64,000 bases of DNA from the NCBI RefSeq assembly GCF_044704955.1, contig NC_091987.1, positions 69,130,001-69,194,000 on the forward strand. Direction: 5' to 3'. Below the pieces are notes generated by a model. That model did no database searches. It had not been told where the DNA came from and saw nothing but the letters and a program-made list of their open reading frames with translations. The position numbers and the translations under genes are program-made. Positions within the stretch are counted from its first letter, which is position 1. Every line of letters begins with the position of its first letter. Of this stretch, positions 3,106-56,590 are shown piece by piece. Source of the DNA: Pristiophorus japonicus (lineage: Eukaryota).

Positions 3106-4030
3106 CACTTCTCTCGATCCCTGCTTGGTAGCTAAATTGTCAGAATGCTTGTCCAACATTCAGTACTGGATGAGCAGAAATTTTCTCCAATTAAATATTG
3201 GGAAGACCGAAGCCATTATCTTTGGTCCCCACCACAAACTGTGTTCCCTAACCACTGATTCCATCCCTCTCCCTAGCATCAATCTGAGGGTGAACAATTG
3301 TTCACAACCTAGGTATCATATTTGACTCTGAAATGACTTTCCAGCCACATATCCGTGACATAACTAAAACCACTTTTTCCCACCTCCGTAACATTGCCCG
3401 CCTCCGCCCCTGCCTCAGCTCTTCTGCTGCTGAAACATTCTTGCATTTGTTACCTCTGGACTTAACTACTCCAACTCACTCCTGACTGGCCTCCCACCTT
3501 CTACATTATGTAAACTTGTCATCTAAAACTCAGCAGCCCGTGTACTAACTCACACCAAGTCACGATTACCCATCACCCCTGTACTTTCTGACCTACATTG
3601 GCTCCCAGTTAAACAACGCCTCGATTTCAAAATTCTCATCCTTGTTTACAAATCACTCCATGGCCTTGCCCCTCCCTATCTCTGTAATCTCCTTCAGTCT
3701 CACAACTCCACAAGATGTGTCTGCTCCTCAAATTCTGGCCTCTTGAACATCCCTCATAACTGCTCAACCATCGGTGGCCGTGCCTTCAGCTGTTTGGGCC
3801 CTAAGCTCTGGAACTCTCTCCCCAAACCTCTCCGTCCCTCTACCTCTCTTTCCTCTTTTAAGATGCTCCTTAAAACCTACGTCTTTAAACAAGCTTTTGG
3901 TCATCTGCCTTAATTTCGTCTTTTGTGGCTCGGTGTCAAATTTATCTGTTTTGTCTTGTAACACTATTGTGAAGCACCTTGGGATGTTTACTACGATAAA
4001 GGTGCGATGTAAATAAAAGTTATTATATTT
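3106..4030 (+). mobile_element. L2-clade LINE 3' fragment
   Basis: CLSNIQYWMSRNFLQLNIGKTEAIIF and LHWLPV-type coding remnant. 3' end gtgaagcaccttgggatg...taaa, similar to 47890-47969. Confidence 0.8.
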
Positions 4031-8890: not shown

Positions 8891-11800
8891 TGTTATCTCT
8901 TGAATAAAGAATCAGACCAGATACTGCAAGCTCAAAGTAAAGTGTGACTATAGTCCTTTATTACAGGTCTCAGAGTGCCTCTCTAGCCTGTGGGACCTCC
9001 ATATGTACCAGTGCTCCAAAGGGATTGTGGTATCCCTTGGGACTCCAGGGATGAGCCCTCTGGTGGTTAAACATGATATTTACAGGTTTACATATATAAC
9101 AACGCCACCACACCCCCCGCCCCCCCCACCCCCTGCCAAAGTCAATAGTGTAACTATTTACAATGTGAGTCGATCTGGGGCCTTCCTTTCCCTGGTTGAT
9201 CGTCTCGGTGCAAATGCTGGTTTTGGTGAGACGTTTGTTGGGCCCTCGCTGGGCTGCTGTGCAGCTGGCCTTGCTGGGCTGCTGTGGGTAATGGGTTCTG
9301 CTTCGTGGTCAACCGTTGGGTTGGTTGCCACTTGTGTGTGTGTTGGAGGGTCGAAAAAGGTAGAGTCTATTGTGGGTTGTTCTGGATAATCTGTGAATCT
9401 GAGTTTGGTTTAGTCCAAGTATTTCCTGCAGGTGAGTCCATTTGAAAGTTTGACCACAAACACCCTACTCCCCTCTTTGGCCAAAACAGTGCCGGGAAGC
9501 CACTTGGGACCTTGTCCATAGTTCAACACAAATACAGGAGCATTAATCTCGATTTCGCGTGACACATTTGCACGGTCATGATATGTATTCTGTTGAAGCC
9601 GCCTGCTCTCTACTTGTTCGCGTAGATCAGGGTGGACTAACGAGAGCCTTGTCTTAAGTGATCTTTTCATGAGCAGTTCAGCGGGGGGAACCCCAGTGAG
9701 CGAGTGGGGTCTTGTGCGGTAACTAAGCAGGACTCGGGATGGGCGAGTCTGCAGTGAGCCTTCAGTTACCCTCTTGATAGTTTGCACTGCTCGCTCTGCC
9801 TGACCGTTGGACGCTGGTTTAAACGGGGCAGATGTGACATGTTTAATCCCATTGCGGGTCATGAACTCTTTGAACTCGGCACTGGTGAAGCACGGCCCAT
9901 TGTCACTCACAAGGGCATCTGGCAGGCCGTGCATGGCAAACATGGCCCGTAGGCTTTCAATGATGGCAGCGGACATGCTTGCAGACATTATCACATTCAA
10001 TCCATTTGGAGTACGCATCTACAACCACTAGGAACATTTTTCCTAAGAATGGACCTGCATAGTCGGACATGAACCCTGGACCACGGTTTGGAGGGCCAGG
10101 ACCATAAACTTAGTGGTGCCTCCCTGGGTGCATTGCTTAACTGTGGACATGTATTACATTTGTGCACGCAGGACTCTAAGTCTGCATCGATACTGGGCCA
10201 CCACACGTGGGATCTGGCTATCGTTTTCATCATTACGGTGCCTGGGTGGGTGCTGTGGAGGTCACTAATGAAAGTGTCCTTGCCCTTTTTTGGCACCACT
10301 ACCCGGTTACCCCATAGGAGGCAGTCTGCCTGTTTGGAAATTTCATCTCTGCGCCACTGGTACGGCTTTATTTCTTCCTGCATCTCTAACGGGACACGAG
10401 ACCAACTCCCGTGGAGCACACAATTTTTTACTCAGGACAGTAAGGGGTCCTGGCTCGACCAGGTTCTAATCTGTCGGGCGGTAACAGGTGATTGCTCACT
10501 CTCGAATGCTTCCATTACCATAACTAAATCTGTGCCTGGCCTGTGGCGGATGGCGTAGTTGTATGCGGACAATGTGAGCGCCCATCTCTGGATGCGGGCC
10601 GATGCATTCGTATTTATCCCCTTACTTTCAGAAAAGAGGGATATAAGTGGCTTATGGTCGGTTTCCAATTCAAATTTGAGCCTAAACAGATATTGATGCA
10701 TTTTCTTTACCCCATAAACACACGCTAACGCTTCTTTTTCGATCATGCTGTAGGCCCTCTCAGCTTTAGACAGACTTCTGGATGCATAAACAACCGGTTG
10801 CAATTTCCCAAATTCATTAGCTTGTTGCAATACACACCCGACACCGTACGACGACGCATCACATGCTAGTACCAAACGCTTACATGGATCGTACAACACA
10901 AGCAATTTGTTTGAACATAACAGTTTCCTAGCTTTCTCAAAGGCATTTTATTGGTTTTTACTCCATACCCATTCATCTCCTTTATGCAGTAAAGAGGGCA
11001 GTGGTTCTAACAATATGCTAAGACCCGGTAAGAAGTTACCAAAGTAGTTCAGGAGTCCTAGAAACGACTGCAACTTCATCACCTTCTGTGGTCTCAGTGC
11101 ATTCTTGATTGCCTCCGTCTTTGAATTGGTGGGCCTGATGCCGTCCAGCGCGATTCTTCTCCCCAGGAACTCCACTTCAGGCACCAGGAAAATGCACTTT
11201 GAGCATTTTAGCCTGAGCCCCACACGATTAAGCCAACTAAGAACCTCCTCCAGGTTCTGCAGGTGCTCGACGGTGTCCCGGCTTGTAATCAAGATGTCAT
11301 TCTGAAGACTAAGGTGCGCGGGACTGACTTCAGCAAGCTTTCCATGTTCCTCTGGAATATCGCCGCGGCCAATCGAATCCCAAACGGGCATCTGTTGTAA
11401 ATGAAGAGACCTTTGTGCGTGCTAATACAGGTGAGGCCCTTCGATGATTCCTCTAGCTCCTACGTCATGTAGGCTGAGGTCAAGTCCAGCTTCGTGAACG
11501 TTTTTCCTCCTGCCAGCGTCGCAAATAGGTCGTCTGCCTTTGGTAGTGGGTATTGATCCTGCAGGGAGAAACGATTGATAGTTACTTTGTAATCACCACA
11601 GATTCTGACAGTGACGTCTTCCCTGAGGACTGGAACAATTGGACTGGCCCACTCTTGAATTCGATCGCCGAAATGATGCCCTCTCGTTGCAGCCTTTCCA
11701 GCTCGATCTCCACCGTCTCTCTCATCATGTATGGTAACACTCTCGCCTTGTGATAGATGGGTCGCGCCCCCGGAATCAAGTGGATCTGCACTTTTGCTCC

Positions 11801-13346
11801 TTGGAGCTTCCCGATGCCCAGTTCGAACAAAGAGGGGAACTTGTTTAGGACCTGGGCACATGAAGTGTAATCAATGGACGAGAGCGCTCGGACGTCGTCC
11901 CAGTTCCAGCGTATCTTTCCCAGCCAGCTTCTGCCGAACAGCGTGGGGCCATCGCCCAGTACCACCCAGAGTGGTAACTTGTGCATCGCTCCTTCATAGG
12001 AGACCTTTACGGTAGCACTGCCGATTACGGGAATCAGTTCCTTTGTGTACGTTCTCAGTTTAGTATGAATGGGAGATCAGGACTGGCCTTGAGGGCTTGC
12101 TGCACCCCAATTTATCGAAAGTCTTTTTGCTCATTATTGACTGGCTCGCATCTGTGTCCAGCTCCATTCAACCTTCAGCATTATCGGGGGACACTTTGTG
12201 GTAAATGTGTGCACCCCATATACCTCTGCCTCCTTAGTCTGAGGCTCTGGTTCATCGTGATCCACTGTGGATCTGTCCTCCTCTGCAACATGGTGGTTTG
12301 CAGGATTAGCAGGGTTTGCAGCTTGCCTGCACATACATTGGAGGTGTCCTATTGTTCCACAGCCCTTGCAAACGTATCCTTTGAAGCGACATGAATGGAA
12401 ACGATGATTCTGCAGTGCCAAGAAGGTGTTAATGGCCTTACATTCACCACCCTTGATGGTGGACTCTGAGCCATCTGCGGATGTGCAGCTGCAGGCATGT
12501 GAGTCCTGCCCTGCACATTACGATTTGAAAACAACATTACTTTGTTCACAGTACTTGCAGCAGCACTCGTGTGCTGAGAGATTTGTTTGGTATTGTCACT
12601 GGTGGAGATAAACGTCTGGGCTATCGCTATGGCTTTACTCAAGGTTGGGGTCTCTACAGTCAAGAGCTTGCGAAGTATTACATCATGGCCAATGCCAAGT
12701 ACAAAGAAGTCCCTGAGCATGTGCTCCAAGTGTCCTCCAAATTCGCAATGTCCTGCAAGGTGCCTTAGCTCGGCGACGTAGCTCGCCACTTCCTGTTCTT
12801 CAGACCCCTTGTACGAGTAGAACCGATACCTCGCCATCAGAACGCTTTCCTTCGGGTTTAGATGCTCCCAGATCAGTGTGCACAAATCATCATACGACTT
12901 CTCTGTGGGTTTCCCTGGAGCGAGCAGATTTTTCATGAGGCCCTACGTTGGTGCCCCGCAAATGCTGAGGAGGATTGCCCTTCGTTTGGCAGCATTCACT
13001 TCTCCTTCCAGGTCGTTGGCCACGAAGTATTGGTCGAGTCGCTCCACGAATGTTTCCCAATCATCTCCCTCTGAAAATTTCTCCAGGATGCCCACGGTGC
13101 TCTGCATTGTTGCGGTGGGGTTCGTCATCTGTATTTCGTCGCCAGTTGTTATGTCTTGAATAAAAAATCAGACCAGATAAAGTAAGGTATGACCGTAGTC
13201 CTTTATTACAAGTCTCAGAGTGCCTCTCCAGCCTGTGAGGCCTCCTTATGTACTGGTGCTCCAAGGGATTATGGTATCCCTTGGGACTCCAGGTGATGAG
13301 CTCTCTGATGGTTAAACATGGTATTTACAGGTTTACTTATATAACG
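8891..13346 (-). mobile_element. Full-length but decayed Gypsy/Ty3 LTR retrotransposon (gag-PR-RT-RH-IN)
   Basis: LTRs at 8891-9101 and 13147-13346. PBS TGGCGACGA next to the 5' LTR, purine tract next to the 3' LTR, near-TSD CTCAA/CTCAG. ORF pieces: gag (WETFVERLDQYF), RT (RICGDYK, FTKLDL), RNase H (LACDASSYGVG), integrase (VSDNGPCF, SNGQAERAVQT). Confidence 0.93.
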
Positions 13347-25775: not shown

Positions 25776-28700
25776 AAACATAGAAAATAGGAAACATAGA
25801 AACATAGAAAACAGGTGCAGGAGTAGGCCATTCGGCTCTTCGAGCCTGCACCACTATTCAATATGATCATGGCTGATCATGTAACTTCAGTACCCCATTA
25901 CTGCTTTCTCTCTATACCCCTTGATCCCTTTAGCCATAATCTAACTCCCTTTTGAATATATCTAATGAACTGGCCTCAACAACTTTCTGTGGTAGAAAAT
26001 TCCACAGGTTCGCAACTCTCTGAGTGAAGAAGTTTCTCCTCATCTCGGTCCTAAATGTCTTACGCCTTATCCTTAGACTGACCCCTGGTTCTGGACTTCC
26101 CCAACATTGGGAAAATTTTTCCTGCATCTAACCTGTCCAATCCCGTCAGAATTTTATATGTTTCTATGAGATCCCCTCTCATTCTTCTAAATTCCAGTAA
26201 GTATAAGCCTAGTCAATCCAGTCTTTCTTCATGTGTCAGTCCTGCCATCCCGGGAATCAGTTTGGTGAACCTTCGATGTCCTTCCTCAGATTAGGAGACC
26301 AAAACTGTACACAATATTCAAGGTGTGGCCTCACCAAGGCCCTGTATAACTGTAGTAAAACCTCCCTGCTTCTATACTCAAATCCTCTCGCTATGAAGGC
26401 CAACATGCCATTTGCCTTCTTCACCGCCTGCTATACCTGCATGCTAACTTTCAATGACTGATGTACCATGACACCTAGGTCTCATTGCACCTCCCTTTTT
26501 CCTAATCTGTCACCATTCAGATAATATTCTGCCTTCCTGTTTTTGCCATCAAAGTGGATAACCTCACATTTATCTACATTCTACTGCATCTGCTATGCAT
26601 TTGCCCACTCACCTAACCTGTCCAAGTCACCCTGCAGCCTCTTAGCATCCGCCTCACAGCTCACATTGCCACCCAGCTTAGTGTCATCTGCAAACTTGGA
26701 GATATTACATTCAATTCCTTCGTCTAAATCATTAATGTATATCGTAAATAGCTGGGGTCTCAGCACTGAACCTTGCGGTACCCCACTAGTCACTGCCTGC
26801 CATTCTGAAAAGGATCCATTTATTCCTACTCTTTGCTTCCTGTCTGCCAACCAGTTCTCTATCCACGTCAATACATTACCCCCCATACCATGTGCTTTAA
26901 TTTTGCACACTAATCTCTTGTGTGGGACCTTGTCAAAAGCCATTTGAAAATCTAAATACACCACATTCACTGGTTCTCCCTTGTCCACTCTACCAGTTAC
27001 ATCCTCAAAAAATTCTAGAAGATTTGTCAAGCATGATTTCCCTTTCATAAATTCAGGCTGACTTGGACCGAGCCTGTCACTGCTTTCCAAATGTGCTGCT
27101 ATTTCGTCTTTAATGATTGATTCCAACATTTTCCCATGACTGATTTCAGGCTAACCGGTCTATAATTCCCTGTTTTTTCTCTCCTTCCTTTTTCAAAAAG
27201 TGGGGTTGCATTAGCTACCCTCCAATCCATAGGAACTGATCCAGAGTCTATAGAATGTTGGAAAATGACTACCAGTGCATCCACTATTTTTATGGGCACT
27301 TCCTTAAGTACTCTGGGATGCAGACCATCAGGCCCTGGGGATTTATCGGCCTTCAATCCCATCAATTTCCCTAACACAATTTCCTGACTAATAAGGATTT
27401 CCTTCAGTTCCTCCTTCTCTCTAGACCCTCGGTCCCCTAGTATTTCGGGAAGGTTATTTATGTCTTCCTTCGTGAAGACAGAACCAAAGTATTTGTTCAA
27501 TTGGTCTGCCATTTCTTTGTTCCTCTTTATAAATTCACCTGATTCTGACTGCAAGGGACCTACATTTGTCTTCACTAATCTTTTTCTCCTCACATATCTA
27601 TAGAAGCTTTTGCAGTCAGTTTTTATGTTCCCTGCAAGCTTACTCTCATACTCTATTTTCCCCATCCTAATTAAACCCTTTGTCCTCCTCTGCTGAATTC
27701 TAAATTTCTCCCAGTCCTCAGGTTTGCTGCTTTTTCTGGCCAATTTATATGCCTCTTCCTTGGATTTAACACTATCTCTAATTTCCCTTGTTAGCCATGG
27801 TTGAGCCACCTTCCCCGTTTTATTTTTACACCAGGCAGGGATGTACAATTGTTGAAGTTCATCCATGTGATCTTTAAATGTCTGCCATTGCCTATCCACC
27901 GTCAACCCTTTAAGTATCATTCGCCAGTCTATCCTAGCCAATTCACTTCTCATACCATCGAAGTTACCTTTCTTTAAGTTCAGGACCATAGTCTCTGAAT
28001 TAACTGTGTCACTCTCCAATGAAGAATTCTTCCATATTATGGTCAATCTTCCCCAAGGAGCCTTGCACCACAAGATTACTAATTAATCCTCTCTCATTAC
28101 ACAACACCTAGGCTAGGATGGCCAGCTCTCTAGTTGGTTCCTCGACATATTGGTCTAGAAAACCATCCCTTATACAATCCAGGAAATCCTCCTCCACCGT
28201 ATTGCTACCAGTTTGGTTAGCCCAATCTATATGTAGATTAAAGTCACCGATGATAACTGCTGTACCCTTATTGCACACATCCCTAATTTCCTGTTTGATG
28301 CCATCCCCAACCTCACTACTACTGTTTGGTGGTCTGTACACAACTCCCACTACCGTTTTCTGCCCTTTGGTGTTCCGCAGCTCTACCCATACAGATTCCA
28401 CATCATCCAAGCTAATGTCCTTCCTTACTATTGTGTTAATTTCCTCTTTAACCAGCAACACTACTCCATTTCCTTTTCCTTTCTGTCTATCCTTCCAGAA
28501 TATTGAATACCCCTGAATGTTGAGTTCCCAGCCTTGGTTACCCTGGAGCCATGACTCCATAATCCCAATTACATCATATCCATTAACAGCTATCTGCGCA
28601 GTTAATTCATCCACCTTATTACGAATGCTCCTCGCATTGAGACACAGAGACTTCAGGCTTGTTTTTTTTAACATTCTTTGTCGTTTTAGAATTATGTTGT

Positions 28701-29288
28701 AATGTTGCCCTTTTTGAATTTTGCGTTTGATTTCTCTGCCCTCCACTTTTCCTTATCTCCTTTCTCCTTTTTGCTTCTGCCCCCATTTTACTTCCCTCTG
28801 TCTCCCTGCATAGATTCCCATCCCCCTGCCATATTAGTTTAAACCCTCCCCAACAGCACTAGCAAACACTCCCCCTAGGACATTGGTTCCGGTCCTGCCC
28901 AGGTGCAGACCGTCCACTTTGTACTGTTCCCACCTCCCCCAGAACCAGTTCCAATGTCCCAGGAATTTGAATCCCTCCCTCTTGCACCATTCCTCAAGCC
29001 ACGTATTCATCTTAACTATCCTGCTATTTCTACTCTGACTAGCACGTGGCACTGGTAGAGATTACTACCTTTGAGGTCCTACTTTTTAATTTAACTCCTA
29101 GCTCCCTAACTTCAGCTTGTAGGACCTCATCCCATTTTTTTTACCTATATTGTTGGTACCTATATGCACCATGACAACTGGCTGTTCACCCTCCCCCTCC
29201 AGAATGCTCTGCAGCTGCTCCAACACATCCTTGACCCTTGCAGTAGAGAGGGAACCTATCATCCTGGAGTCTCGATTGCAGCCGCAAA
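25776..29288 (-). mobile_element. CR1 LINE (ORF1 esterase end plus disrupted ORF2), antisense in the last intron
   Basis: ORF1 end NTWLEEWC...DGLHLGRTGTNVLGG, APE (CLNARSIRNK, GDFNLH), RT (KFADDTK), and a (TTTCTATG)n-type tail at ~25776-25810. Confidence 0.92.
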
Positions 29289-38522: not shown

Positions 38523-39116
38523 CATAAGAACATAAGAAATAGGCACAGGAGTAGGCTATATGGCCCCTCGAGCCTGCTCCACCATTCAATAAGACCGTGG
38601 CTGATCTCTCAGCTCCACTTCCCCGCCCGCTCCCCATAACCCCTTATCCCCTTATCGGTTAAGAAACTGTCTATTTCTGTCTTAAATTTATTCAACGTCC
38701 CAGCTTCCACAGCTCTCTGAGGCAGCGAATAGCACAGATTAACAACACTCTGAGAAAATAAATTTCTCCTCATCTCTGTTTTAAATGGGCGGCCCCTTAT
38801 TCTAAGATCATGCCCTCTAGTTCTAGTCTCCCCCATCAGTGGAAACATCCTCTCTGCATCCACCTTGTCAAGCCCCCTCATAATCTTATACATTTCGATA
38901 AGATCACCTCTCATTCTTCTGAATTCCAATGAGTAGAGGCCCAACCTACTCAACCTTTCCTCATAAGTCCACCCCCTCATCTCCGGAATCAACCTTATGA
39001 ATCTTCTCTGAACTGCCTCTAAAGCAAGTATATCCTTTCGTAAATATGGAAACCAAAACTGCACGCAGTATTCCAGGTGTGGCCTCACCAATACCTTATA
39101 TAGCTGTAGCAAGACT
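38523..39116 (-). mobile_element. CR1 3' fragment
   Basis: ORF 38609-39277 [14 protein letters not shown]...GYGERAGKWS, with tail (ttcttatg)n at 38523-38538. Confidence 0.85.
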
Positions 39117-40161
39117 TGCAAACTACCGGCCCATCTCCAACCCCTCTTTCCTTTCCAAAGTCCTTGAAAGTGTTGTAGCCTCCCAAATCCGTGCCCAGCT
39201 TTTCTGCAATTCCATGTTTGACTCCCTCCAATCCCTTGGCCGAAAACATAATCCGAAAACATAGCGTCCGTTTCCACATGTACGCTGATGACACCCAGCT
39301 CTACCTCACTATACTTCTATCAACACCTCCACGGTCTCTAAATTGTCAGACTCCTTATCCAACATCCAGTTCTGGATGAGAAGAAATTTTCTCCAAATGT
39401 ATATTGGGAAAGCCGAAGCCATTGTTTTCAGTCCCCGCCACAAACTCCATTCCCTAGCCACTGACTCCAACCCTCTCCCCAACGTCTGTCTGAGGCTGAA
39501 CCACACTGTTCACAACTTTGTTGTCATATTTGACCTTGAAATGAGTTTTCGACCACATATCCGCAGCATAACTAAGACTGCCTATTTCCACCTCCGTAAC
39601 ATTGCCCGTGTCCGCCCTTGCCTCAGTTCATCCGCTGCTAAAGCCCTCATCCATGCCTTCGTGACCTCTAGACTTGACTATTCCAACTGGCTGGCCTCCC
39701 ACATTCTACCCTACGTAAACTAGAGGTGATCCAAAACTCGGCTGCCCGTGTCCTAACTCACACCAAGTCCCGTTCACCCATGACCTCTGTGCTTGCTGAC
39801 CTACATTGGCTCCCATTTAAGCAATGCCTCGATTTAAAAATTCTCATCCTTGTTTTCAAATCCCTCCATGGCTTCGCCCCTCCATATCTGCGTAATCTCC
39901 TCCCCCCCCCCACCCGCCCCGAGACATCTGAGCTCCTCTAATTCTGCCCTCTTGAGCATCCCTGATTACAATCACTCAACCATTGGTGGCCGTGCCTTCT
40001 ATTATCTAGGCTCTAAGTTCTGGAATTCCTTCACTAAACCTCTCTGGCTCTTGACCTCTCTTTCCTCCTTCAAGACGCTCCTTAAAACATATCTCTTTGA
40101 CCAAGCTTTTGGCCACCTACCCTAATTTCTCCTTGTTATGTATTTAACGCTTTGTAACTTG

Positions 40162-43100
40162 AGCAGTGGTGCAGCAGGGAGGGATTCAAATTCCTGGGGC
40201 ATTGGGACCGGTTCTGGGGGAGGTGGGACCAGTACAAACCGGACGGTCTGCACCTGGGCAGGACCGGAACCAATGTCCTAGGGGGAGTGTTTGCTAGTGC
40301 TGTTGGGGAGGATTTAAACTAATATGGCAGGGGGATGGGAACCAATGCAGGGAGACAGAGGGAAACAAAAAGGAGACAAAAGCAAAAGACAGAAAGGAGA
40401 TGAGGAAAAGTGGAGGGCAGAGAAACCCAAGGCAAAGAACAAAAAGGGCCACTGTACAGCAAAATTCTAAAAGGACAAAGGGTGTTAATAAAACAAGCCT
40501 GAAGGCTTTGTGTCTTAATGCAAGGAGTATCCGCAATAAGGTGGATGAATTAATTGTGCAAATAGATGTTAACAAATATGATGTGATTGGGATTACGGAG
40601 ACGTGGCTCCAGGATGATCAGGGCTGGGAACTCAACATTCAGAGGTATTCAACATTCAGGAAGGATAGAATAAAAGGAAAAGGAGGTGGGGTAGCATTGC
40701 TGGTTAAAGAGGAGATTAATGCAATAGTTAGGAAAGACATTAGCTTGGATGATGTGGAATCTATATGGGTAGAGCTGCAGAACACCAAAGGGCAAAAAAC
40801 GTTAGTAGGAGTTGTGTACAGACCTCCAAACAGTAATAGGGATGTTGGGGAGGGCATCAAACAGGAAATTAGGGGTGCATGCAATAAAGGTGTAGCAGTT
40901 ATAATGGGTGACTTTAATATGCACATAGATTGGGCTAGCCAAACTGGAAGCAATACGGTGGAGGAGGATTTCCTGGAGTGCATAAGGGATGGTTTTCTAG
41001 ACCAATATGTTGAGGAACCAACTAGGGGGGAGGCCATCTTAGACTGGGTGTTGTGTAATGAGAGAGGATTAATGAGCAATCTCATTGTGCGAGGCCCCTT
41101 GGGGAAGAGTGACCATAATATGGTGGAATTCTGCATTAGGATGGAGAATGAAACAGTAATTTCAGAGACCATGGTCCAGAACTTAAAGAAGGGTAACTTT
41201 GAAGGTATGAGGCGTGAATTGGCTAGGATAGATTGGCGAATGATACTTAGGGGGTTGACTGTGGATGGGCAATGGCAGACATTTAGAGACCGCATGGATG
41301 AATTACAACAATTGTACATTCCTGTCTGGCGTAAAAATAAAAAAGGGAAGGTGGCTCAACCGTGGCTATCTAGGGAAATCAGGGATAGTATTAAAGCCAA
41401 GGAAGTGGCATACAAATTGGCCAGAAATAGCAGCGAACCTGGGGACTGGGAGAAATTTAGAACTCAGCAGAGGAGGACAAAGGGTTTGATTAGGGCAGGG
41501 AAAATGGAGTACGAGAAGAAGCTTGCAGGGAACATTAAGGCGGATTGCAAAAGTTTCTATAGGTATGTAAAGAGAAAAAGGTTGGTGAAGACAAACGTAG
41601 GTCCCCTGCAGTCAGAATCAGGGGAAGTCATAACGGGGAACAAAGAAATGGCAGACCAATTGAACAAGTACTTTGGTTCGGTATTCACTAAGGAGGATAC
41701 AAACAACCTTCCGGATATAAAAGGGGTCAGAGGGTCTAGTAAGGAGGGGGAACTGAGGGAAATCTTTATTAGTCGGGAAATTGTGTTGGGGAAATTGATG
41801 GTATTGAAGGCCGATAAATCCCCAGGGCCTGATGGACTGCATCCTAGAGTACTTAAGGAGGTGGCCTTGGAAATAGCGGATGCATTGACAGTCATTTTCC
41901 AACATTCCATTGACTCTGGATCAGTTCCTATGGAGTGGAGAGTAGCCAATGTAACCCCACTTTTTAAAAAAGGAGAGAGAGAGAAAACAGAGAATTATAG
42001 ACCGGTCAGCCTGACCTCAGTAGTGGGTAAAATGATGGAATCAATTATTAAGGATGTCATAGCAGTGCATCTGGAAAATGGTGACATGATAGGTCCAAGT
42101 CAGCATGGATTTGTGAAAGGGAAATCATGCTTGACAAATCTTCTGGAATTTTTTGAGGATGTTTCCAGTAAAGTGGACAAAGGAGAACCAGTTGATGTGG
42201 TATATTTGGACTTTCAGAAGGCTTTCGACAAGGTCCCACACAAGAGATTAATGTGCAAAGTTAAAGCACATGGGATTGGGGGTAGTGTGCTGACGTGGAT
42301 TGAGAACTGGTTGTCAGACAGGAAGCAAAGAGTAGGAGTAAACGGGTACTTTTCAGAATGGCAGGCAGTGACTAGTGGAGTGCCGCAAGGTTCTGTGCTG
42401 GGGCCCCAGCTGTTTACATTGTACATTAATGATTTAGACGAGGGGATTAAATGCAGTATCTCCAAATTTGCGGATGATACTAAGTTGGGTGGCAGTGTGA
42501 GCTGCGAGGAGGATGCTATTAGGCTGCAGAGTGACTTGGATAGGTTAGGTGAGTGGGCAAATGCATGGCAGATGAAGTATAATGTGGATAAATGTGAGGT
42601 TATCCACTTTGGTGGTAAAAACAGAGAGACAGACTATTATCTGAATGGTGACAGATTAGGAAAAGGGAAGGTGCAACGAGACCTGGGTGTCATGGTACAT
42701 CAGTCATTGAAGGTTAGCATGCAGGTACAGCAGGCGGTTAAGAAAGCAAATGGCATGTTGGCCTTCATAGCGAGGGGATTTGAGTACAGGGGCAGGGAGG
42801 TGTTGCTACAGTTGTACAGGGCCTTGGTGAGGCCACACCTGGAGTATTGTGTACAGTTTTGGTCTCCTAACTTGAGGAAGGACATTCTTGCTATTGAGGG
42901 AGTGCAGCGAAGGTTCACCAGACTGATTCCCGGGATGGCGGGACTGACCTATCAAGAAAGATTGGATCAACTGGGCTTGTATTCACTGGAGTTCAGAAGA
43001 ATGAGAGGGGACCTCATAGAAACGTTTAAAATTCTGACGGGTTTAGACAGGTTAGATGCAGAAAGAATGTTCCCAATGTTGGGGAAGTCCAGAACCAGGG

Positions 43101-43404
43101 GTCACAGTCTGAGGATAAGGGGTAAGCCATTTAGGACCGAGATGAGGAGAAACTTCTTCACCCAGAGAGTGGTGAACCTGTGGAATTCTCTACCACAGAA
43201 AGTAGTTGAGGCCAATTCACTAAATATATTCAAAAGGGAGTTAGATGAAGTCCTTACTACTCGGGGGATCAAGGGTTATGGCGAGAAAGCAGGAAGGGGG
43301 TACTGAAGTTTCATGTTCAGCCATGAACTCATTGAATGGCGGTGCAGGCTAGAAGGGCTGAATGGCCTGCTCCTGCACCTATTTTCTATGTTTCTATGTT
43401 TCTA
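40162..43404 (+). mobile_element. Young CR1 LINE, 5'-truncated within ORF1
   Basis: TSD TGTAACTTG (40153-40161 / 43405-43413), ORF1 end DGLHLGRTGTNVLGG...DLN*, intact ORF2, (TTTCTATG)n tail. Confidence 0.95.
40400..43306 (+). CDS. CR1 ORF2: AP-endonuclease plus reverse transcriptase, 968 aa, uninterrupted
   Basis: CLNARSI, ITETW, GDFN, LDWVL, SDHN (APE); [25 protein letters not shown] (RT). The frame is also open upstream, past the ORF1 stop. Confidence 0.95.
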   Translation: MRKSGGQRNPRQRTKRATVQQNSKRTKGVNKTSLKALCLNARSIRNKVDELIVQIDVNKYDVIGITETWLQDDQGWELNIQRYSTFRKDRIKGKGGGVALLVKEEINAIVRKDISLDDVESIWVELQNTKGQKTLVGVVYRPPNSNRDVGEGIKQEIRGACNKGVAVIMGDFNMHIDWASQTGSNTVEEDFLECIRDGFLDQYVEEPTRGEAILDWVLCNERGLMSNLIVRGPLGKSDHNMVEFCIRMENETVISETMVQNLKKGNFEGMRRELARIDWRMILRGLTVDGQWQTFRDRMDELQQLYIPVWRKNKKGKVAQPWLSREIRDSIKAKEVAYKLARNSSEPGDWEKFRTQQRRTKGLIRAGKMEYEKKLAGNIKADCKSFYRYVKRKRLVKTNVGPLQSESGEVITGNKEMADQLNKYFGSVFTKEDTNNLPDIKGVRGSSKEGELREIFISREIVLGKLMVLKADKSPGPDGLHPRVLKEVALEIADALTVIFQHSIDSGSVPMEWRVANVTPLFKKGEREKTENYRPVSLTSVVGKMMESIIKDVIAVHLENGDMIGPSQHGFVKGKSCLTNLLEFFEDVSSKVDKGEPVDVVYLDFQKAFDKVPHKRLMCKVKAHGIGGSVLTWIENWLSDRKQRVGVNGYFSEWQAVTSGVPQGSVLGPQLFTLYINDLDEGIKCSISKFADDTKLGGSVSCEEDAIRLQSDLDRLGEWANAWQMKYNVDKCEVIHFGGKNRETDYYLNGDRLGKGKVQRDLGVMVHQSLKVSMQVQQAVKKANGMLAFIARGFEYRGREVLLQLYRALVRPHLEYCVQFWSPNLRKDILAIEGVQRRFTRLIPGMAGLTYQERLDQLGLYSLEFRRMRGDLIETFKILTGLDRLDAERMFPMLGKSRTRGHSLRIRGKPFRTEMRRNFFTQRVVNLWNSLPQKVVEANSLNIFKRELDEVLTTRGIKGYGEKAGRGY

Positions 43405-46400
43405 TGTAACTTGCATTACACCTGACCTCCAGAGGGAATCCCAAGGGATTCCAGCATCACAGGTCACCTATGAGGTACTTGCACTCTGGAATCTGAATAA
43501 AGGAGCTAAGGTCACACTTGCTCATTACACACAGTACTCAGTCTCACCATTTATTATGAGTGTAACAATTGGCGATGAGGTAACGAACAACCACGCGAAA
43601 ATGCAAAGAACAGTCGGCATCCTGGAGAAGTTCTCAGAAGAAGATGATTGGGAGGCCTTCGTGGAGAGACTCGACCAATACTTTGTGGCCAACGAGCTGG
43701 AAGGAGACGAGAATGCCACTAAACAAAGGGCGATCCTCCTAACTCTCTGTGGGGCAACAACCTATGGCCTCATGAAGAATCTCCTGGCCCCGGCAAAACC
43801 AACAGAGAAATCCTACAAAGAATTGTGTACGTTGGTCCGGGAGCATCTAAATCCTAAGGAAAGTGTTTGATGGCGAGATATCGGTTCTACACGTGTCAAC
43901 GATCGGAGGGCCAGGAAGTGGCGAGCTACTTCGCCGAACTAAGGCGCCTCGCAGGACCTTGTGAGTTTGAGCGATTCCTAGAACAAATGCTCAGAGACTT
44001 TTTTGTACTGGGCATCGCACATGAGACAATCCTTTGCAAACTGTTGACTGTAGAAACTCCGAATCGGAGTAAAGCCATAACGATAGCCCAGGCATTTATG
44101 TCCACCAGCGACAACACCAAGCAGATTTCGTAGAACAAAGAAGTTTCGGCCAGTACTGTGCACAAAGTAACGTCGGTTTTTGAGCAGAAATGTACATGGC
44201 AGAATGTACACGCCGGCTGCTGTGGCCCGACCTCAATTGACCCAGAGTCCGCATCATCTGTTAATGCGAGGCAGTTAACACCCTGTTGGTGCTGCGGAGG
44301 TGATCATTGGCCCCATCAATGCCACTTTAAGCACTATGCGTGCAATGGTTGCAGAACAATGGGGCACCTCCAACGAATGTGCAGGCGAGCTGCAAACCCT
44401 GCAAACCATCACGTTGCAGAGGAAGATCAATCCACAGTGGATCAGACTGAGTTGGAAACTCATACGGAGGACACAGGTGTACACACGTTCACGATGAAAT
44501 GCCCACCAATAATGTTGAAAGTTGAACTGAACGGCATTCCTATATCTATGGAGCTTCTTACTCAGGGACACGGGGCAAGTCAGTCCATAATGAGTAAAAA
44601 GGCCTTCGACAGGCTGTGGGGAAAGAAGGCACACAGGCCCAAGCTCAGCCCCATTCACACTAAACTAAGGACTTACACCAAGGAACTAATCCCTATAATT
44701 GGCAGTGCAGAAGTCAAAGTCTCCTATGATGGAGCAGTACACGAACTCCCGCTGTGGATTGTGCCAGGGGATGGCCCCACGTTGTTTGGCAGAAGCTGGC
44801 TGGGGAAAATCCGCTGGAACTGGGACGACATCCGAGCGCTTTCATGCATCGACGACGCCTCAATTACCCAACATGTTCCCAATGTTATTCGAGCCAGACA
44901 TTGGAAGCTTCTCGGGGCCGAAAGTGCAGATCCATTTGGTTCCTGGTTCGCGACCCATCCACCACAAGGCTCGGGCTGTACCGTACATGATGCGTGAAAA
45001 AGAGGAAATTGAGCTGGACAGGCTGCAATGTGAAGGCATCATCGCGCCGGTTGAATTCAATGACTGGGCCAGTCCGATTGTCCTGGTACTCAAGGAGGAT
45101 GGTACGGTTAGAATTTGCGGGGACTATAAAGTAATGATTAATCGTTTTTCACTGCAGGACCAGTACCCGCTACCCAAGGCAGACGACCTATTTGCGACCC
45201 TGGCTGGAGGGAAGACGTTCACCAAGCTGGACCTGACCTCGGCCTACATGACGCAGGATCTGGAGGAGTCTTCGAAAGGCCTCACCTACATTAACACACA
45301 CAAAGGTCTGTTTATCTACAACCGGTGCCCGTTCGGGATTTGGTCGGCCGCGGCAATCATCCAACGGAATATGGAGAGCCTGCTAAAGTCGGTTCCTTGC
45401 ACAGTGATCTTCCAGGACGACATATTGGTTACACGTCGGAACACCATGGAGCACTTGAAGAATCTGGAGGAGGTTCTTAGTCAGTTGGATCGCATGGGGC
45501 TCAGATTGAAATGCTCGAAGCGTGTTTTCCTGGCACAGGACGCTGAATTCTTAGGAAGGAGAATCGCAGCAGACGGCATCAGACTCACCGATGCCAAGAC
45601 GGAGGCCATCAAGAACGCGCCGAGACCACAGAATGTGACAGAGCTGCGGTCGTTCCTGGGACTCCTTAACTATGTCGGTAATTTCCTACCTTGGTTAAGC
45701 ACCCTGCTAGAACCCCTACATGCGCTACTGCGTAAGGGAGATGACTGGGTATGAGGGAATTCACAAGAGGCTGACTTTAAGAAAGCCAGAAATTTATTGT
45801 GTTCTAACAAACTGCTTGTCCTGTATAATCCATATAAATGATTAGTGTTAGCTTGCGATGCGTCGTCATACAGGATCGGGTGTGTGTTACAACAGGCTAA
45901 TGAGTCGGGGATTTTGTAACCGGTTGCTTTTGCATCCAGGAGTTTGTCCAAGGCCGAAAGGGCCTACAGCATGGTTGAAAAAGAGTCTTTGGCGTGCGTT
46001 TACGGGGTAAAATAAATGCACCAGTACTTGGCCTCAAGTTCGAGCTTGAAACTGACCACAAGCTGCTCATATCGCTGCTCTCTGTGAGCAAAGGGATTAA
46101 TACCAATGCCTCTGCCCGCATCCAAAGATGGGTGCTCACGCTGTCGGCATACAACTATGAAATCCGCCACAGACCGGGCACAGAGAACTGTGCAAATGCT
46201 CTCAGTTGGCTACCATTGCCCACCACCGGGGTGGAAATGGCACAGCCAGCGGACTTGCTCATGGTCATGGATGCATTTGAGAACGAGAAGTCCCCCGTTA
46301 CGGTCCGCCAGATCAGGACCTGGACCAGCCAGGATCCTTTACTGTCCTTGGTAAAAAAATTGTGTCCTCCATGGGAGCTGGTCCAGTGTCCCAGTGGAGA

Positions 46401-49253
46401 TGCAGGAAGCGATTAAGCCGTTCCACAGACGCAAAGACGAGTTGTCCCTGCAGGCAGACTGTCTTTTGTGGGGCAATCGTGTGGTCCAAGAAAAGCAAAG
46501 ACACATTTATTTGTGAATTGCACAATACCCACCCAGGCATCGTAATGATGAAAGCCATAGCCAGATCTCACATATGGTGGCCTGGCATCGACTCAGATTT
46601 AGAGTCATGCGTGCGCCAGTGCAACACTTGCTCTCAGTTGAGCAATGCACCCAGAGAGGCACTGCTAAGTTTGTGGTCTTGGCCATCCAAACCATGGTTG
46701 AGGATCCATGTAGACTATGCAGGCCCATTCCTATGCAAAATGTTTTTGGTTGTTGTGGACGCTTACTCAAAATGGATTGAATGTGCAATAATGTCTGTAA
46801 GCATATCCACGGCCACCATTGAAAGCCTATGAGCCATGTTTGCCACGCAGTCAGCGACAATGGGCCGTGCTTCACCAGTGCTGAATTCAAGGAATTCATG
46901 ACCCTCAGCGGGATCAATATGTCACATCTGCCCTGTTCAAGCCCGCACCCAACGGCCAGGCAGAACAAGCAGTTCAAACCATCAAGCAAAGCTTGAAACA
47001 TGTGTCGGAAGGCTCCCTGCAGACCTGGTTGTCCCGAGTGCTGCTCAGCTACCGCACCAGACCCCACTCACTCACCGGGATTCCCCCAGCTGAGCTGCTC
47101 ATGAAAAGGGCACTTAAAACAAGGTTCTCTCTTGTCCACCCTGATCTCCATGATCACGTGGAGGGCAAGCGGCATCAACAAAGTATGTACCATGACCACG
47201 CAAATCTGTCACGCGATATTGAGATCAATGATCCTGTGTTTGTGTTCACTTATGGACATGGTCCCAAATGGCTCGCTGGCACGGTCACAGCCAAAGAGGG
47301 GAGTAGGGTGTTTCAGGTCAAACTGACCAATGGACAAATGCACAGAAAACATTTGGACCAAATCAAATTGCGGTTCACCAACAGTTACGAACAACCCGAA
47401 GAGGACACCACCAACTTTGACCTTCCAACACACATACAAGTGGCCACTGACATCATAGTTGACCACGAAACTGAACTCATCATCCCCAGCAGCATGGCAA
47501 GGCCGGCTGCCCAGCAGCCCAGTGAAGAACTGACCAACCCAGCCACACCTGCATTTGTACCGAGACGATCGACAAGGGAGTGCATAGCCCCAGATCCTTG
47601 TAAATAAGTGTACTCTTGACTTCACGGGGGAGTGATGTTATGTATTTAACCCTTTGTAACTTGCATTACACCTGACCACCAGATGGCCCACCTGTTGGAG
47701 TCCCAAGGGATTCCAGCATCCCTTGGGAGCACAGTATATAAGCAGACCACCCACGAGGTATCTGCACACTGGAACATGAATAAAGGAGCTAAGGTCACAC
47801 TTGCTCATTACGCACAGTACTCAGTCTCACCATTTATTATGAGTGTAACACTCCTCATGCAGTTCGGTGCTAAATTTTGGATCTCATAATACTCCTGTGA
47901 AGTGCCTTGGGATATTTCACTATGTTAAAGCCACTATATAAATGTAAGTTGTTGTTGTTGTTATTGTTGAAACCCACTAGTCAAACTGAAATGAGGCTTG
48001 GCGCAGCCAGTGTCGGATCATTGAATGAATGACCACAAATTGAGGATTTCCGCTTTGGGATGCGCATGCACTACATCCTGAAGATGCGGTCAGTTTCAGA
48101 GGAGTAATAACAGGGAACACTGTTCGTTCGCTGTATTACCCACCACAAATTCCAGGCCCAAATAGTACAAACCTAAAATTTATTTAATATGGGCTGAGCG
48201 TTTCACACAGTGTTTAAGTGAATCACATTTGTCTATAAATTCAGCCACACAGTGCCCATTTTCCGTGCGCTAACTGGCCTATTAAGCCCCCATATGCTGT
48301 TTGGAAGTCCACTGCCGCCGTATTGGGAAAGGAATAAAAAATAGGCGCCAGTGCCCATGCCTGAAGCAGGTGTTAGGTCCCTAATTTGCATATGCCACTT
48401 GAAGATTGGTTTGCCCCGAATGCAGCACGCTCCAGCATTGGCCGCAATCAAAACCAGACCTTGGGAGCGCCTGGGACCTGCAAGGTAAGTTTTTGTACAT
48501 CTATTTACCTGAACATTGAGCCCAGGGGGAGCAGAAATGTAATATCTGACCTTACATTTAACGAGAGCTCACCACCACTCCTGACACCCCCTCACTTCCC
48601 CCATTGATCATCGTCAATCCCGAACCCCTGATTACCAATATTCCCAACTCCAACAACCCCCCCCCCCCGCCCCCCGGTGGCCTCCTTGCCCCTTGCCCTC
48701 CATCCCTGACCTCCCAGACTGCAACCACGATCCCTGACCTTTTGCTCCACTACCCCATCCTTCACCTGCCCTCCAATTCCAACCACAGCATCCTCCCCAA
48801 CCCTCGTTCTCTTGACCCCTGACCCTGGACCCGGTAAGCTCTATTTTCTAGGTCACTGAGTCCAATAAAGTATATTTATTATCTTATAAAAAAAGAGCTT
48901 GCATGACTGGAGGAAATGAGTTGCAAAACATTATTAGAACAAATTCTCTGTGGTTCAATGTTGCTTATGCATTTCAGCAGAGCTAAGACTAACCACAAAC
49001 CAAATATTTTTTCCATTCGGACTATGACGGATATCACAACATGGAAAAAAATAAACTTAATGACAAGCAATGAGTTAGTCATTGGCAAGACTGACCACAA
49101 TAAAACACTTCCTTTGCTTCTGACCCTTCATAGAACTAGTCGCGAGCACTAGGTGACAAACAACTTAACATGCACAGCAATCCTTATAAGTGTGTGGTGA
49201 GTATAACAGCCAACCAAGGCTACAGGTGAAAGGTTATGAATGTTGGCTAAAAG

Positions 49254-51110
49254 TATTGTGCTCCTAACACAGATGAGACTGCACACAGGGAGGTTAAAGT
49301 AACAGTGACCTCAGTCTTTATTAAGACACTCCAGAGTGAGGAACAGGCCTTAGGGGCCGGCTTATATACAGTGCTCCCAAGGGATGCTGGGATCCCTTGG
49401 GACTTCAGGGGATGCGCTCCCTGGTGGCAGAATATGGGAGTGCATGCTTTACAGATACACAACATCACTCCCCCCCAAAGTCAAAGTGAAAACTATTTAC
49501 AAGGTGAGGCAGTCGGGAGCCTTTCTTTCCCTGGTGGACCGCCTCGGTACAAATGTCTGTTCTGGTGTGTTGGCTGTGCCCTTGCTAGGCTGGCATATTG
49601 TTGGCCCTGCAGGGCTGCTGGGTGAGCCTGGCCTTGCTGGGCTGTTGGGCGTGATGGGTTCAATTTCCTGGTCCGGGGTGGTGTCGTTGATCCTTTGGGT
49701 GTATGTTGTGGGCTCGAAAAAGGTGGTGTCTGCTGTGGGTTGTTCAGGGCAGTCTGTGAATCGCAGCCTCATTTGGTCCAGGTGCTTTCTGCAAATTTGT
49801 CCATTGTCTAGTTTGACTACAAACACCCTATTCCCTTCTTTAGCTATCACCGTGTCCGCGATCCACTTGGGACCATGTCCATAGTTTAGCGCATACACAA
49901 CACAGGGTCATTCAGATCAATTTCCTGTGACACAGTGGCGCGACCATCGTTTACATTTTGTTGCTGCCGCCTGCTCTCTACCTGACCATGCAGGTTGGGG
50001 TGGACCAGCGAGAGTCTGGTTTTAAGTGTCCTTTTCATGAATAGCTCAGCCGGGGGCACCCCTGTGAGCGAGTGGGGTCTCGTGTGGTAGCTGAGCAGTA
50101 CTTGGGACAGGCGGGTTTGGAGTGAGCCTTCTGTGACTCGTTTGAGGCTCTGTTTGATTATTTGTACTGCCCGCTCTGCCTGCCCATTGGAGGCTGGTTT
50201 AAACGGGGTCGAGGTGACATATTTGATCCCATTGCGGGTCATGAATTCTTTAAATTCGGTACTGGTGAAACATGTCACTGACCAGTATGTCAGGCAGGCC
50301 GTGGGTGGCAAACATGGCCCTCAGGCTTTCAATGGTGGCAGTGGCGGTGCTTCCCGATATTATTTCACATTCAATCCATTTTGAAAAAGCATCCACCACC
50401 ACCAGGAACATTTTACCGAGAAACAGGCCCGCATAGTCAACATGGATCCTCGACCATGGTCTGTAGGGCCAGGACCACAAACTTAGTGGTGCCTCTCTGG
50501 GCGCGTTGCTCAACTGAGCACACACTCGGCATTGCCGTACACAGGATTCTAAGTCAGAGCCGATACCGGGCCACCACACGGGTGTGTGCTGTGGAGATCC
50601 GAGATGAACGTCTCCCTGCCCTTTTTGGGTAGCGCTACGCGGTTACCCCACAACAGGCAGTCTGCCTGAATGGACAGCTCGTCCTTTCGCCACTGGAACG
50701 GCTTGATTAGCTCTTGCATTTCAACGGGGATGCTGGCCCAGCTCCCATGCAGTATACAGCTTTTTACTAGGGACAGCAGAGGATCTTGGCTGGTCCAAGT
50801 CCTAATCTGGCGGCCAGTGACAGGTGATTTATCATTTTCAAACGCTTCCATGACCATCAACAAGTCTGCGGGCTGCGCCACCATCAACAAACTTGCAGGC
50901 TGTGCCATTTCCACCCCCGTGGTGGGCAATGGTAGCCGACTGAGAGCATTCAGTTCTCGGTGCCTGGCCTGTGGCGGATGGTATAGTTATACGCTGATAG
51001 CGCGAGTGCCCACCTTTGTATGCAGGCTGAGGCATCAGTATTTATCCCCTTGTTTTCAGCGAACAGGGATATGAGGGGATTGTGATCGATTTCCAATTCA
51101 AACTTGAGGC
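49254..51110 (-). mobile_element. Truncated Gypsy (3' LTR 49254-49464, PPT, integrase, RNase H end)
   Basis: PWSRIHVDYAG, SNGQAERAVQ, GHGPKW. PPT (rc gggggggagtga) adjacent to the LTR. Confidence 0.88.
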
Positions 51111-55900: not shown

Positions 55901-56063
55901 CATTTTCCTTCCCATTGCCTTTGACAACAAGGAAAACCAGGCAGGCTGTATAATGGGCACGCACTCTGATACACCATCCCCAAAAGTTAAAATGACCTCC
56001 ATTGTCTTCAGCACACCTGTGCAATCATCCAATCTGAATTCTAATCTACATCTCCCAATCCTG

Positions 56064-56590
56064 CTGCCCTTGAGCTAGGTTTAGAGATGAGCAATAATTG
56101 CTGCCCTTGAGCTAGGTTTAGAGATGAGCAATAATTGCTGCCCTTGAGCTAGGTTTAGAGATGAGCAATAATTGCTGCCCTTGAGCTAGGTTTAGAGATG
56201 AGCAATAATTGCTGCCCTTGAGCTAGGTTTAGAGATGAGCAATAATTGCTGCCCTTGAGCTAGGTTTAGAGATGAGCAATAATTGCTGCCCTTGAGCTAG
56301 GTTTAGAGATGAGCAATAATTGCTGCCCTTGAGCTAGGTTTAGAGATGAGCAATAATTGCTGCCCTTGAGCTAGGTTTAGAGATGAGCAATAATTGCTGC
56401 CCTTGAGCTAGGTTTAGAGATGAGCAATAATTGCTGGCCTTGAGCTAGGTTTAGAGATGAGCAATAATTGCTGGCCTTGAGCTAGGTTTAGAGATGAGCA
56501 ATAATTGCTGGCCTTGAGCTAGGTTTAGAGATGAGCAATAATTGCTGGCCTTGAGCTAGGTTTAGAGATGAGCAATAATTGCTGGCCTTG
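56064..56590 (+). repeat. 37-bp minisatellite, 14 full copies plus 9 nt
   Basis: Unit ctg(c/g)ccttgagctaggtttagagatgagcaataattg. Units 1-10 have ctgccc, units 11-14 and the partial unit have ctggcc. Confidence 0.97.

Follow-up and report, generated by a model that had tools for sequence, protein, structure and literature searches.

Within the window analysed here, a stretch of 64,000 nt from the genome of Pristiophorus japonicus (contig NC_091987.1, positions 69,130,001 to 69,194,000), a retrotransposon carries two reading frames that overlap at a heptamer known from viral frameshift sites, which raises the question of how the second frame is translated. The retrotransposon is a young, 5'-truncated CR1 LINE copy of family A (40158..43402, + strand), gaplessly aligned over 3245 nt to the full-length copy L052 at 99.3 % identity. 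It comprises (i) the 3' remnant of ORF1 (40158..40322), translating into the end of an SGNH esterase domain and closing with Leu-Asn-stop, (ii) ORF2 in the -1 frame (40313..43306) with a basic 68-codon linker, an APE endonuclease and a reverse transcriptase, and (iii) a 3' tail (43337..43407) composed of a hairpin and an 8-nt tandem repeat (43379-43407). CR1 elements end in a hairpin plus short tandem repeat without poly(A); the hairpin arms covary between the tail types (read by eye). ORF2 matches the Pfam families Exo_endo_phos (E 2.7e-14) and RVT_1 (E 5.7e-33), and the 315-aa ORF1 of full-length copies (L009, L003) matches Lipase_GDSL_2 above the curated cut-off (E 4e-14). Judged by these domains and by its likeness to consensus elements labelled LINE/CR1, the element is an esterase-type CR1 LINE. 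Among named proteins, those sharing at least 40 % identity with ORF1 belong mostly to sharks, rays and a chimaera. P0006, a protein with 62 % identity to ORF1, carries a bacterial name on a 4-kb contig and probably represents host contamination.

A second, older and likewise 5'-truncated CR1 copy with the same junction is located on the minus strand (25791..29286; 86.5 % identity to L052). The first-pass annotation had reported that this copy retains the heptamer (28837-28843) and all four downstream G-tracts, has ATA at the codon equivalent to 40400 and a different in-frame ATG, all of which is correct; this ATG lies at 28784-28786. However, at about 87 % identity the two window copies are, taken alone, too similar to demonstrate selection. 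Moreover, the plus copy has an intact ORF2 but only about the last 54 codons of ORF1, and the minus copy carries a frameshift before the endonuclease, so that neither can itself make a full fusion protein; with most of ORF1 missing, the plus copy is a passive record of the signal. Heptamer, stop and G5 together occur twice in the window (expectation 0.00 from 100 shuffles). The neighbourhood is rich in other repeats: a probable LTR-type retroelement adjoins the CR1 tail (43403-47850; direct repeat 43460-43567/47743-47850, reverse transcriptase match 44702-45751) and has decayed relatives at about 9000-13300 (inverted) and 49350-51100, further LINE fragments lie directly upstream of the CR1 insertion (39000-40134) as well as at 2643-3922 and 175-650, and a minisatellite (56062-56590) consists of 14.3 copies of a 37-nt unit with 99 % matches.

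At the junction of the plus copy, ORF1 ends with GAT TTA AAC TAA, placing the heptamer T-TTA-AAC (40313-40319) in X-XXY-YYZ phase immediately 5' of the stop codon (40320..40322; replaced by TGA or TAG elsewhere among the lineages). Without any stop, the -1 frame extends over 40298-43306 (1002 aa) and thus leads into ORF2. The coordinates given in the first-pass annotation were accurate. UUUAAAC is the natural shift site of coronaviruses and most arteriviruses, and the coronavirus heptamer named by the first-pass annotation is contained in Table 1 of PMC3835772. GUUAAAC is that of equine arteritis virus (PMC3835772; PMC5009743). Based on the comparisons described below, (U/G)-UUA-AAC plus stop is likely to drive a -1 frameshift yielding an ORF1-ORF2 fusion in esterase-type CR1 elements.

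If so, the heptamer should be retained well beyond the two window copies. Relatives were gathered by anchor and pattern searches, the DNA search skipping very common words and a junction query giving no match. A 35-nt anchor taken from ORF1, 5' of the heptamer, gives 18,070 exact matches in the genome. In every lineage inspected, i.e., four families of this genome and all nine visible junctions of metagenome elements, ORF1 ends with (T/G)-TTA-AAC-stop. Among 70 family-A copies picked on the upstream anchor (65 unique segments), (G/T)TTAAAC plus stop is present in 59 segments (44 with G, 15 with T, 6 other), so most members carry G-TTA-AAC, unlike the window's T-TTA-AAC. Of 40 long family-A copies, nine have an ORF2 that is open, and each of these nine carries TTTAAAC. 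Family B, recruited with a protein 44 % identical to the family-A ORF1, also ends with TTTAAAC-TAA: counted by eye with anchors on both sides, 79 TTTAAAC and 2 GTTAAAC are found among 100 listed of 239 matches. In family D (2,562 anchor matches), TTTAAAC is the modal form (31 of 62 junctions located in 70 old copies), followed by TTTAAAT (7/62), which fits decay at a per-site identity of about 0.9. Twelve of 30 metagenome loci were read, of which three end before the junction; at 29-37 % amino-acid identity, the other nine all display (T/G)TTAAAC-TAG. Eight of these elements presumably resemble bird CR1, while the ninth (L131) stands apart. The viral and prokaryote collections provided no usable full-length element, and a search with protein P0010 returned solely junctions like those of families A and C.

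Such conservation could in principle reflect the protein rather than the RNA, as Leu-Asn closes 45 of the 47 ORF1 homologues whose C-terminus is complete. A requirement for a C-terminal Leu-Asn, however, cannot fix synonymous letters. Across seven lineages, four of which are interrelated (58-75 % identity) so that about four are independent, 27 columns combine an invariant residue with a choice of synonymous codons. The terminal pair is encoded by TTA (Leu) and AAC (Asn) in 7/7 lineages each, and just one of the remaining 25 columns keeps a single codon. Among the 19-32 Leu codons per lineage, TTA is used no more than 1-9 times. The residue preceding Leu-Asn also conforms: a codon unable to end in U is required in 1 of 47 proteins ending in Leu-Asn, versus 50 of 235 residues at positions -8 to -4. 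With synonymous letters fixed and the preceding residue U-compatible, the constraint acts on the RNA letters and is shaped like a slip site.

An RNA signal of another type, e.g., a splice acceptor with branch point or a premature poly(A) signal, would also constrain the letters. CTAAT and CAG are splice branch-point and acceptor consensus motifs, and both occur just downstream in family A. Yet a polypyrimidine tract is absent, CTAAT is not kept in the lineages terminating with TAG, and no GT..AG was found among 10 joints in four runs, which consist of contigs whose RNA nature is a guess. Taken together, another RNA signal or a mere protein constraint is a most improbable explanation of the junction.

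Published consensus elements agree with the codon pattern. In the supplement of PMC13343379, covered to 400 letters per entry and scored for hits and not for misses, 15 of 19 listed places with 'tttaaacta' represent an ORF1 end (by eye). The entry abbreviations were expanded as alligator, crocodile, bowfin, bullfrog, coelacanth, chimaera, sharks, rays and one teleost. Six synonymous alternatives (70 occurrences) were not encountered by eye at a CR1 ORF1 end among the four places listed per alternative in the same consensus file. The catshark-labelled consensus ScyCan_CR1-1a is nearly identical to the window element in its ORF1 end and junction (PMC13343379).

A functional slip site further implies that the linker remains in the -1 frame. 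The endonuclease motif is locatable in 93 of 100 family A/C loci, and 73 of these 93 linkers keep the -1 frame, most often at a length of 204 nt. In family B, a short span across a slippage-prone G-run is in the -1 frame in 67 of 100 listed matches (60 at one modal length), and the whole linker is in frame in 5 of 15 measurable copies, old copies being mostly broken. Family D has modal linkers of 171 and 162 nt, and the modal lengths of all measured families, like these two, are multiples of three. Among metagenome elements of sufficient length, 6 of 7 are open in the -1 frame up to the endonuclease. The out-of-frame linkers (20 of 93 in family A/C, 10 of 15 measurable in family B, 15 of 37 in family D) are read here as decay. 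Two near-identical groups (L002, L004, L006, L010, L019; and L003, L005, L012, L017, L018; contig C1, first 3.3 Mb) each share one linker break (205 and 197 nt), however, and are tentatively interpreted as duplicated dead copies, stemming from local duplication or mobilisation in trans. In addition, the same ORF1 end and junction occur with different 3' tails and partly different linkers (204, 213-216 and 447 nt; L034, L036, L041, L047, L050, L053, L060, L068 versus L037, L052), which suggests that CR1 lineages have exchanged modules at breakpoints within the linker.

The main competitor of a frameshift is separate synthesis of ORF2 by termination at the ORF1 stop and reinitiation beyond it, either on an AUG close by or, following L1, on a non-AUG codon; the heptamer would then serve as termination or reinitiation context. 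The start codons give this route some backing. The first in-frame ATG of ORF2 in the young subfamily (40400..40402) is fixed there (15,812 ATG versus 130 ATH matches) and its equivalent is present in 48 of 65 family-A segments. An in-frame linker AUG exists somewhere in families A, B and C as well as in all six scored metagenome elements, i.e., in most lineages. Within family A, the AUG shifted from codon 19 to codon 29 via copies possessing both, as a required AUG would. On the other hand, its position ranges from codon 4 to about codon 47 between lineages, and family D has no shared AUG at all: no codon ahead of the endonuclease is ATG in more than one of 14 copies in either of two sub-lineages, and any linker ATG is found in only 4 of 22 in-frame copies. 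Hence AUG-dependent initiation cannot yield an intact endonuclease in family D. AUG-less copies of the young subfamily do not constitute a comparable branch, as they are at decay level (130 versus 15,812), and the AUG-less L119 is a single copy rather than a lineage.

Known modes of coupled translation were also considered. A TURBS-like UGGGA downstream of the stop is missing in the TAG-terminated metagenome lineages and was dismissed as a reinitiation element. SART1-type coupling relies on UAAUG, with the AUG overlapping the ORF1 stop. The element has TAATA here, without AUG overlap, and lineages differ freely in the codon at this overlap, which is unfavourable to reinitiation. A UAAUG stop-start overlap in the -1 frame was seen in just two published consensus elements in the supplement of PMC13343379; these two are in line with reinitiation, but SART1-type coupling does not fit the junction here. 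The L1-type spacer arrangement does not apply either, since no stop interrupts the ORF2 frame where it crosses the ORF1 stop. Nevertheless, L1 sets a precedent for AUG-independent initiation in the sections covered of PMC5009743 and PMC1965478, and since L1 ORF2 is made without needing an AUG, a missing AUG alone is not decisive against reinitiation. What reinitiation leaves unexplained is why the retained letters spell an X-XXY-YYZ in phase, and why their only common variant is likewise a known shift site. Separate translation of ORF2 is therefore considered improbable. The frameshift fusion that the first-pass annotation had put forward as a possibility gains strong support, as far as sequence comparison reaches, from the codon conservation, the linker frame and the AUG-less family. 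What looked like a natural fusion of 1332 aa proved to be two normal ORFs.

Which feature would stimulate such a frameshift is less clear-cut. The G-rich element behind the stop (40326..40343; G5 at 40330-34, G3 at 40337-39) is conserved: a run of at least five G begins 8-11 nt past the heptamer in all 15 representative loci, mostly followed by a second G-tract, and G4Hunter scores reach at least 1.2 in 14 of 15 loci (1.4 in the window copy, within the top 1 % of the element's windows). This G5-N2-G3 element is probably the stimulator or half of one. By contrast, a strong local hairpin or pseudoknot behind the heptamer was not found in the 15 loci (-4 to -20 kcal/mol; z -1.2 to +1.3 in 14 loci and -3.6 in one), and Rfam gave one chance-level match. 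Pairing of the G-rich element with the 3' tail was rejected for this family: this site ranked 8th among those in the window copy, and the tail arm varies together with the local hairpin it belongs to, against a constant junction.

The stimulator originally proposed is a three-tier G-quadruplex formed by four tracts (40330-40362). All four tracts do exist (40330-34, 40337-39, 40350-52, 40360-62), the pattern recurs in 58 of 70 family-A copies, and the window copy has the G4Hunter score given above. Quadruplexes indeed stimulate -1 slippage in reporters, on UUUAAAC itself (PMC3919603), as the first-pass annotation had stated for reporters in general. However, tracts 3 and 4 (40350..40362) are lineage-specific: the full pattern is present in only 7 of 27 family-B copies and in none of 8 scored metagenome elements, and is missing from L008, L030 and L111 of family A/C. 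Relatives in four other organisms are alike up to about 40343 and then diverge, i.e., before tracts 3 and 4 (among 40 listed of 109 differences). The reporters carry compact quadruplexes at 6-8 nt, the optimal spacing, with about 7 % efficiency (PMC3919603, parts covered), whereas the CR1 version would have long loops (10 and 7 nt) and a 10-nt spacer. Two further such patterns are present in the same G-rich element, and the structure is not chosen by ViennaRNA with quadruplex folding enabled. Accordingly, the proposed four-tract quadruplex did not withstand comparison and is very unlikely to be the stimulator. A different quadruplex or a protein-bound G-run may tentatively be envisaged. The absence of any discrete structure, with stop codon and G-run sufficing, or something else, is a plausible option, if still short of an even chance.

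A fourth candidate, rather doubtful as the stimulator, is a long-range helix. Scanning for distant partners revealed a 12-bp helix between the G-rich element and an ORF1 tract about 634 nt upstream, ranking best in 6 of 12 family-A copies. The partner is a pyrimidine tract formed by the codons immediately before a PLxNR[YF] motif and is absent from both window copies. Synonymous resampling in family A matched the helix twice in 300 ORF1 versions and never in 100 versions of the whole element. All 23 G-rich decoys were weaker, yet one of them likewise outdid all 60 resamples. Outside family A the outcome was mixed, with matches in 4-236 of 500 resamples for nine family-B copies, 1-403 of 500 for five bird-like elements, 340 of 500 for L131 and 3-94 of 300 for 18 family-D copies. 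The ORF1 tract is Pro-rich and could instead fold into a local hairpin. Folding of the whole region assigned the helix a probability of 0 in L009 and of about 0.9 at the homologous site of the family-B copy L078. A central pair is lost in the five copies of one young sub-lineage, two mismatches in family D are uncompensated, and no compensatory changes in the 12 bp were found among the families compared. In four other organisms, the 9-nt core varies solely by a change preserving a G-U pair; one flanking pair is disrupted, however, and the surroundings upstream vary just as little. A local hairpin of -16 kcal/mol is predicted in ORF1 before PLxNR[YF] (L009:905-950), and its block 907-931 has no listed variant in these four organisms. 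The modelled helix, significant in family A and mixed elsewhere, is thus a lead and not a result. The broader proposition that esterase-type CR1 elements across vertebrates make a Gag-Pol-like fusion stimulated by pairing with ORF1 sequence some 630 nt upstream is regarded as unlikely. Such a helix would close again once the ribosome has passed, acting in the manner of an antisense oligonucleotide supplied by the RNA itself, and would tie the frameshift rate to ribosome traffic on ORF1.

The predicted arrangement resembles several known systems in part. The vertebrate esterase-type CR1 elements of PMC13343379 have, as here, an ORF2 with APE and RT domains and an esterase ORF1. The main text of that paper is silent on frameshifting, overlap, slippery sites, start codons and translation and offers no ORF2 expression route, and the portion covered of its supplement does not mention frameshifting. 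ORF2 translation of the Dictyostelium elements TRE5-A and TRE3-A is stated to require a -1 frameshift (PMC5911963, parts covered); these are also APE-type LINEs, but belong to another clade and host and lack an esterase ORF1. The nidovirus ORF1a/1b sites UUUAAAC and GUUAAAC are identical to both CR1 forms, but are followed within 3-7 nt by a strong pseudoknot (PMC3835772; PMC5009743, parts covered), whereas CR1 displays a conserved G-rich strand without local partner. Mammalian L1 likewise has a bicistronic LINE RNA with ORF2 independent of a conserved AUG (PMC5009743; PMC1965478, parts covered); its ORFs are spaced and ORF2 is initiated separately, while the ORF2 frame of CR1 spans the ORF1 stop from the slippery site onward.

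No description of a -1 slip site in CR1 and no account of CR1 ORF2 translation were found in the full-text literature searched, the 1997 chicken and turtle CR1 papers and Kapitonov and Jurka 2003 lying outside its scope. A CR1 slip site is not mentioned in the portions covered of PMC13343379, PMC5009743, PMC11835228, PMC3905857 and PMC4255032, the term CR1 being absent from that of PMC5009743. Hence, while -1 frameshifting is common in viruses and, in the text seen, stated for TRE5-A and TRE3-A, the present analysis adds the test against a four-tract quadruplex, the AUG-less family and the upstream-helix lead.

In the favoured scheme, tRNA-Leu and tRNA-Asn would slip in tandem by one base back at the heptamer. 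The majority of ribosomes would end at the ORF1 stop and release a 35-kDa ORF1 protein, and a minority would continue through the basic linker into endonuclease and reverse transcriptase, giving a predicted fusion of 1310 aa (about 148 kDa; sizes from copy L054). The slip frequency would set the ORF1:ORF2 ratio in gag-pol style, and the fusion would be the likely source of endonuclease and reverse transcriptase. The cassette of about 30 nt with its unusual G-rich candidate stimulator is directly testable. If the frameshift is real, the annotated start of ORF2 would change, as would the construct needs of CR1 retrotransposition assays. CR1-group elements are the dominant retrotransposons in most vertebrates, according to the text seen of PMC13343379; their polymerase would then be expressed in a retrovirus-like manner, fused to the esterase ORF1, unlike that of L1.
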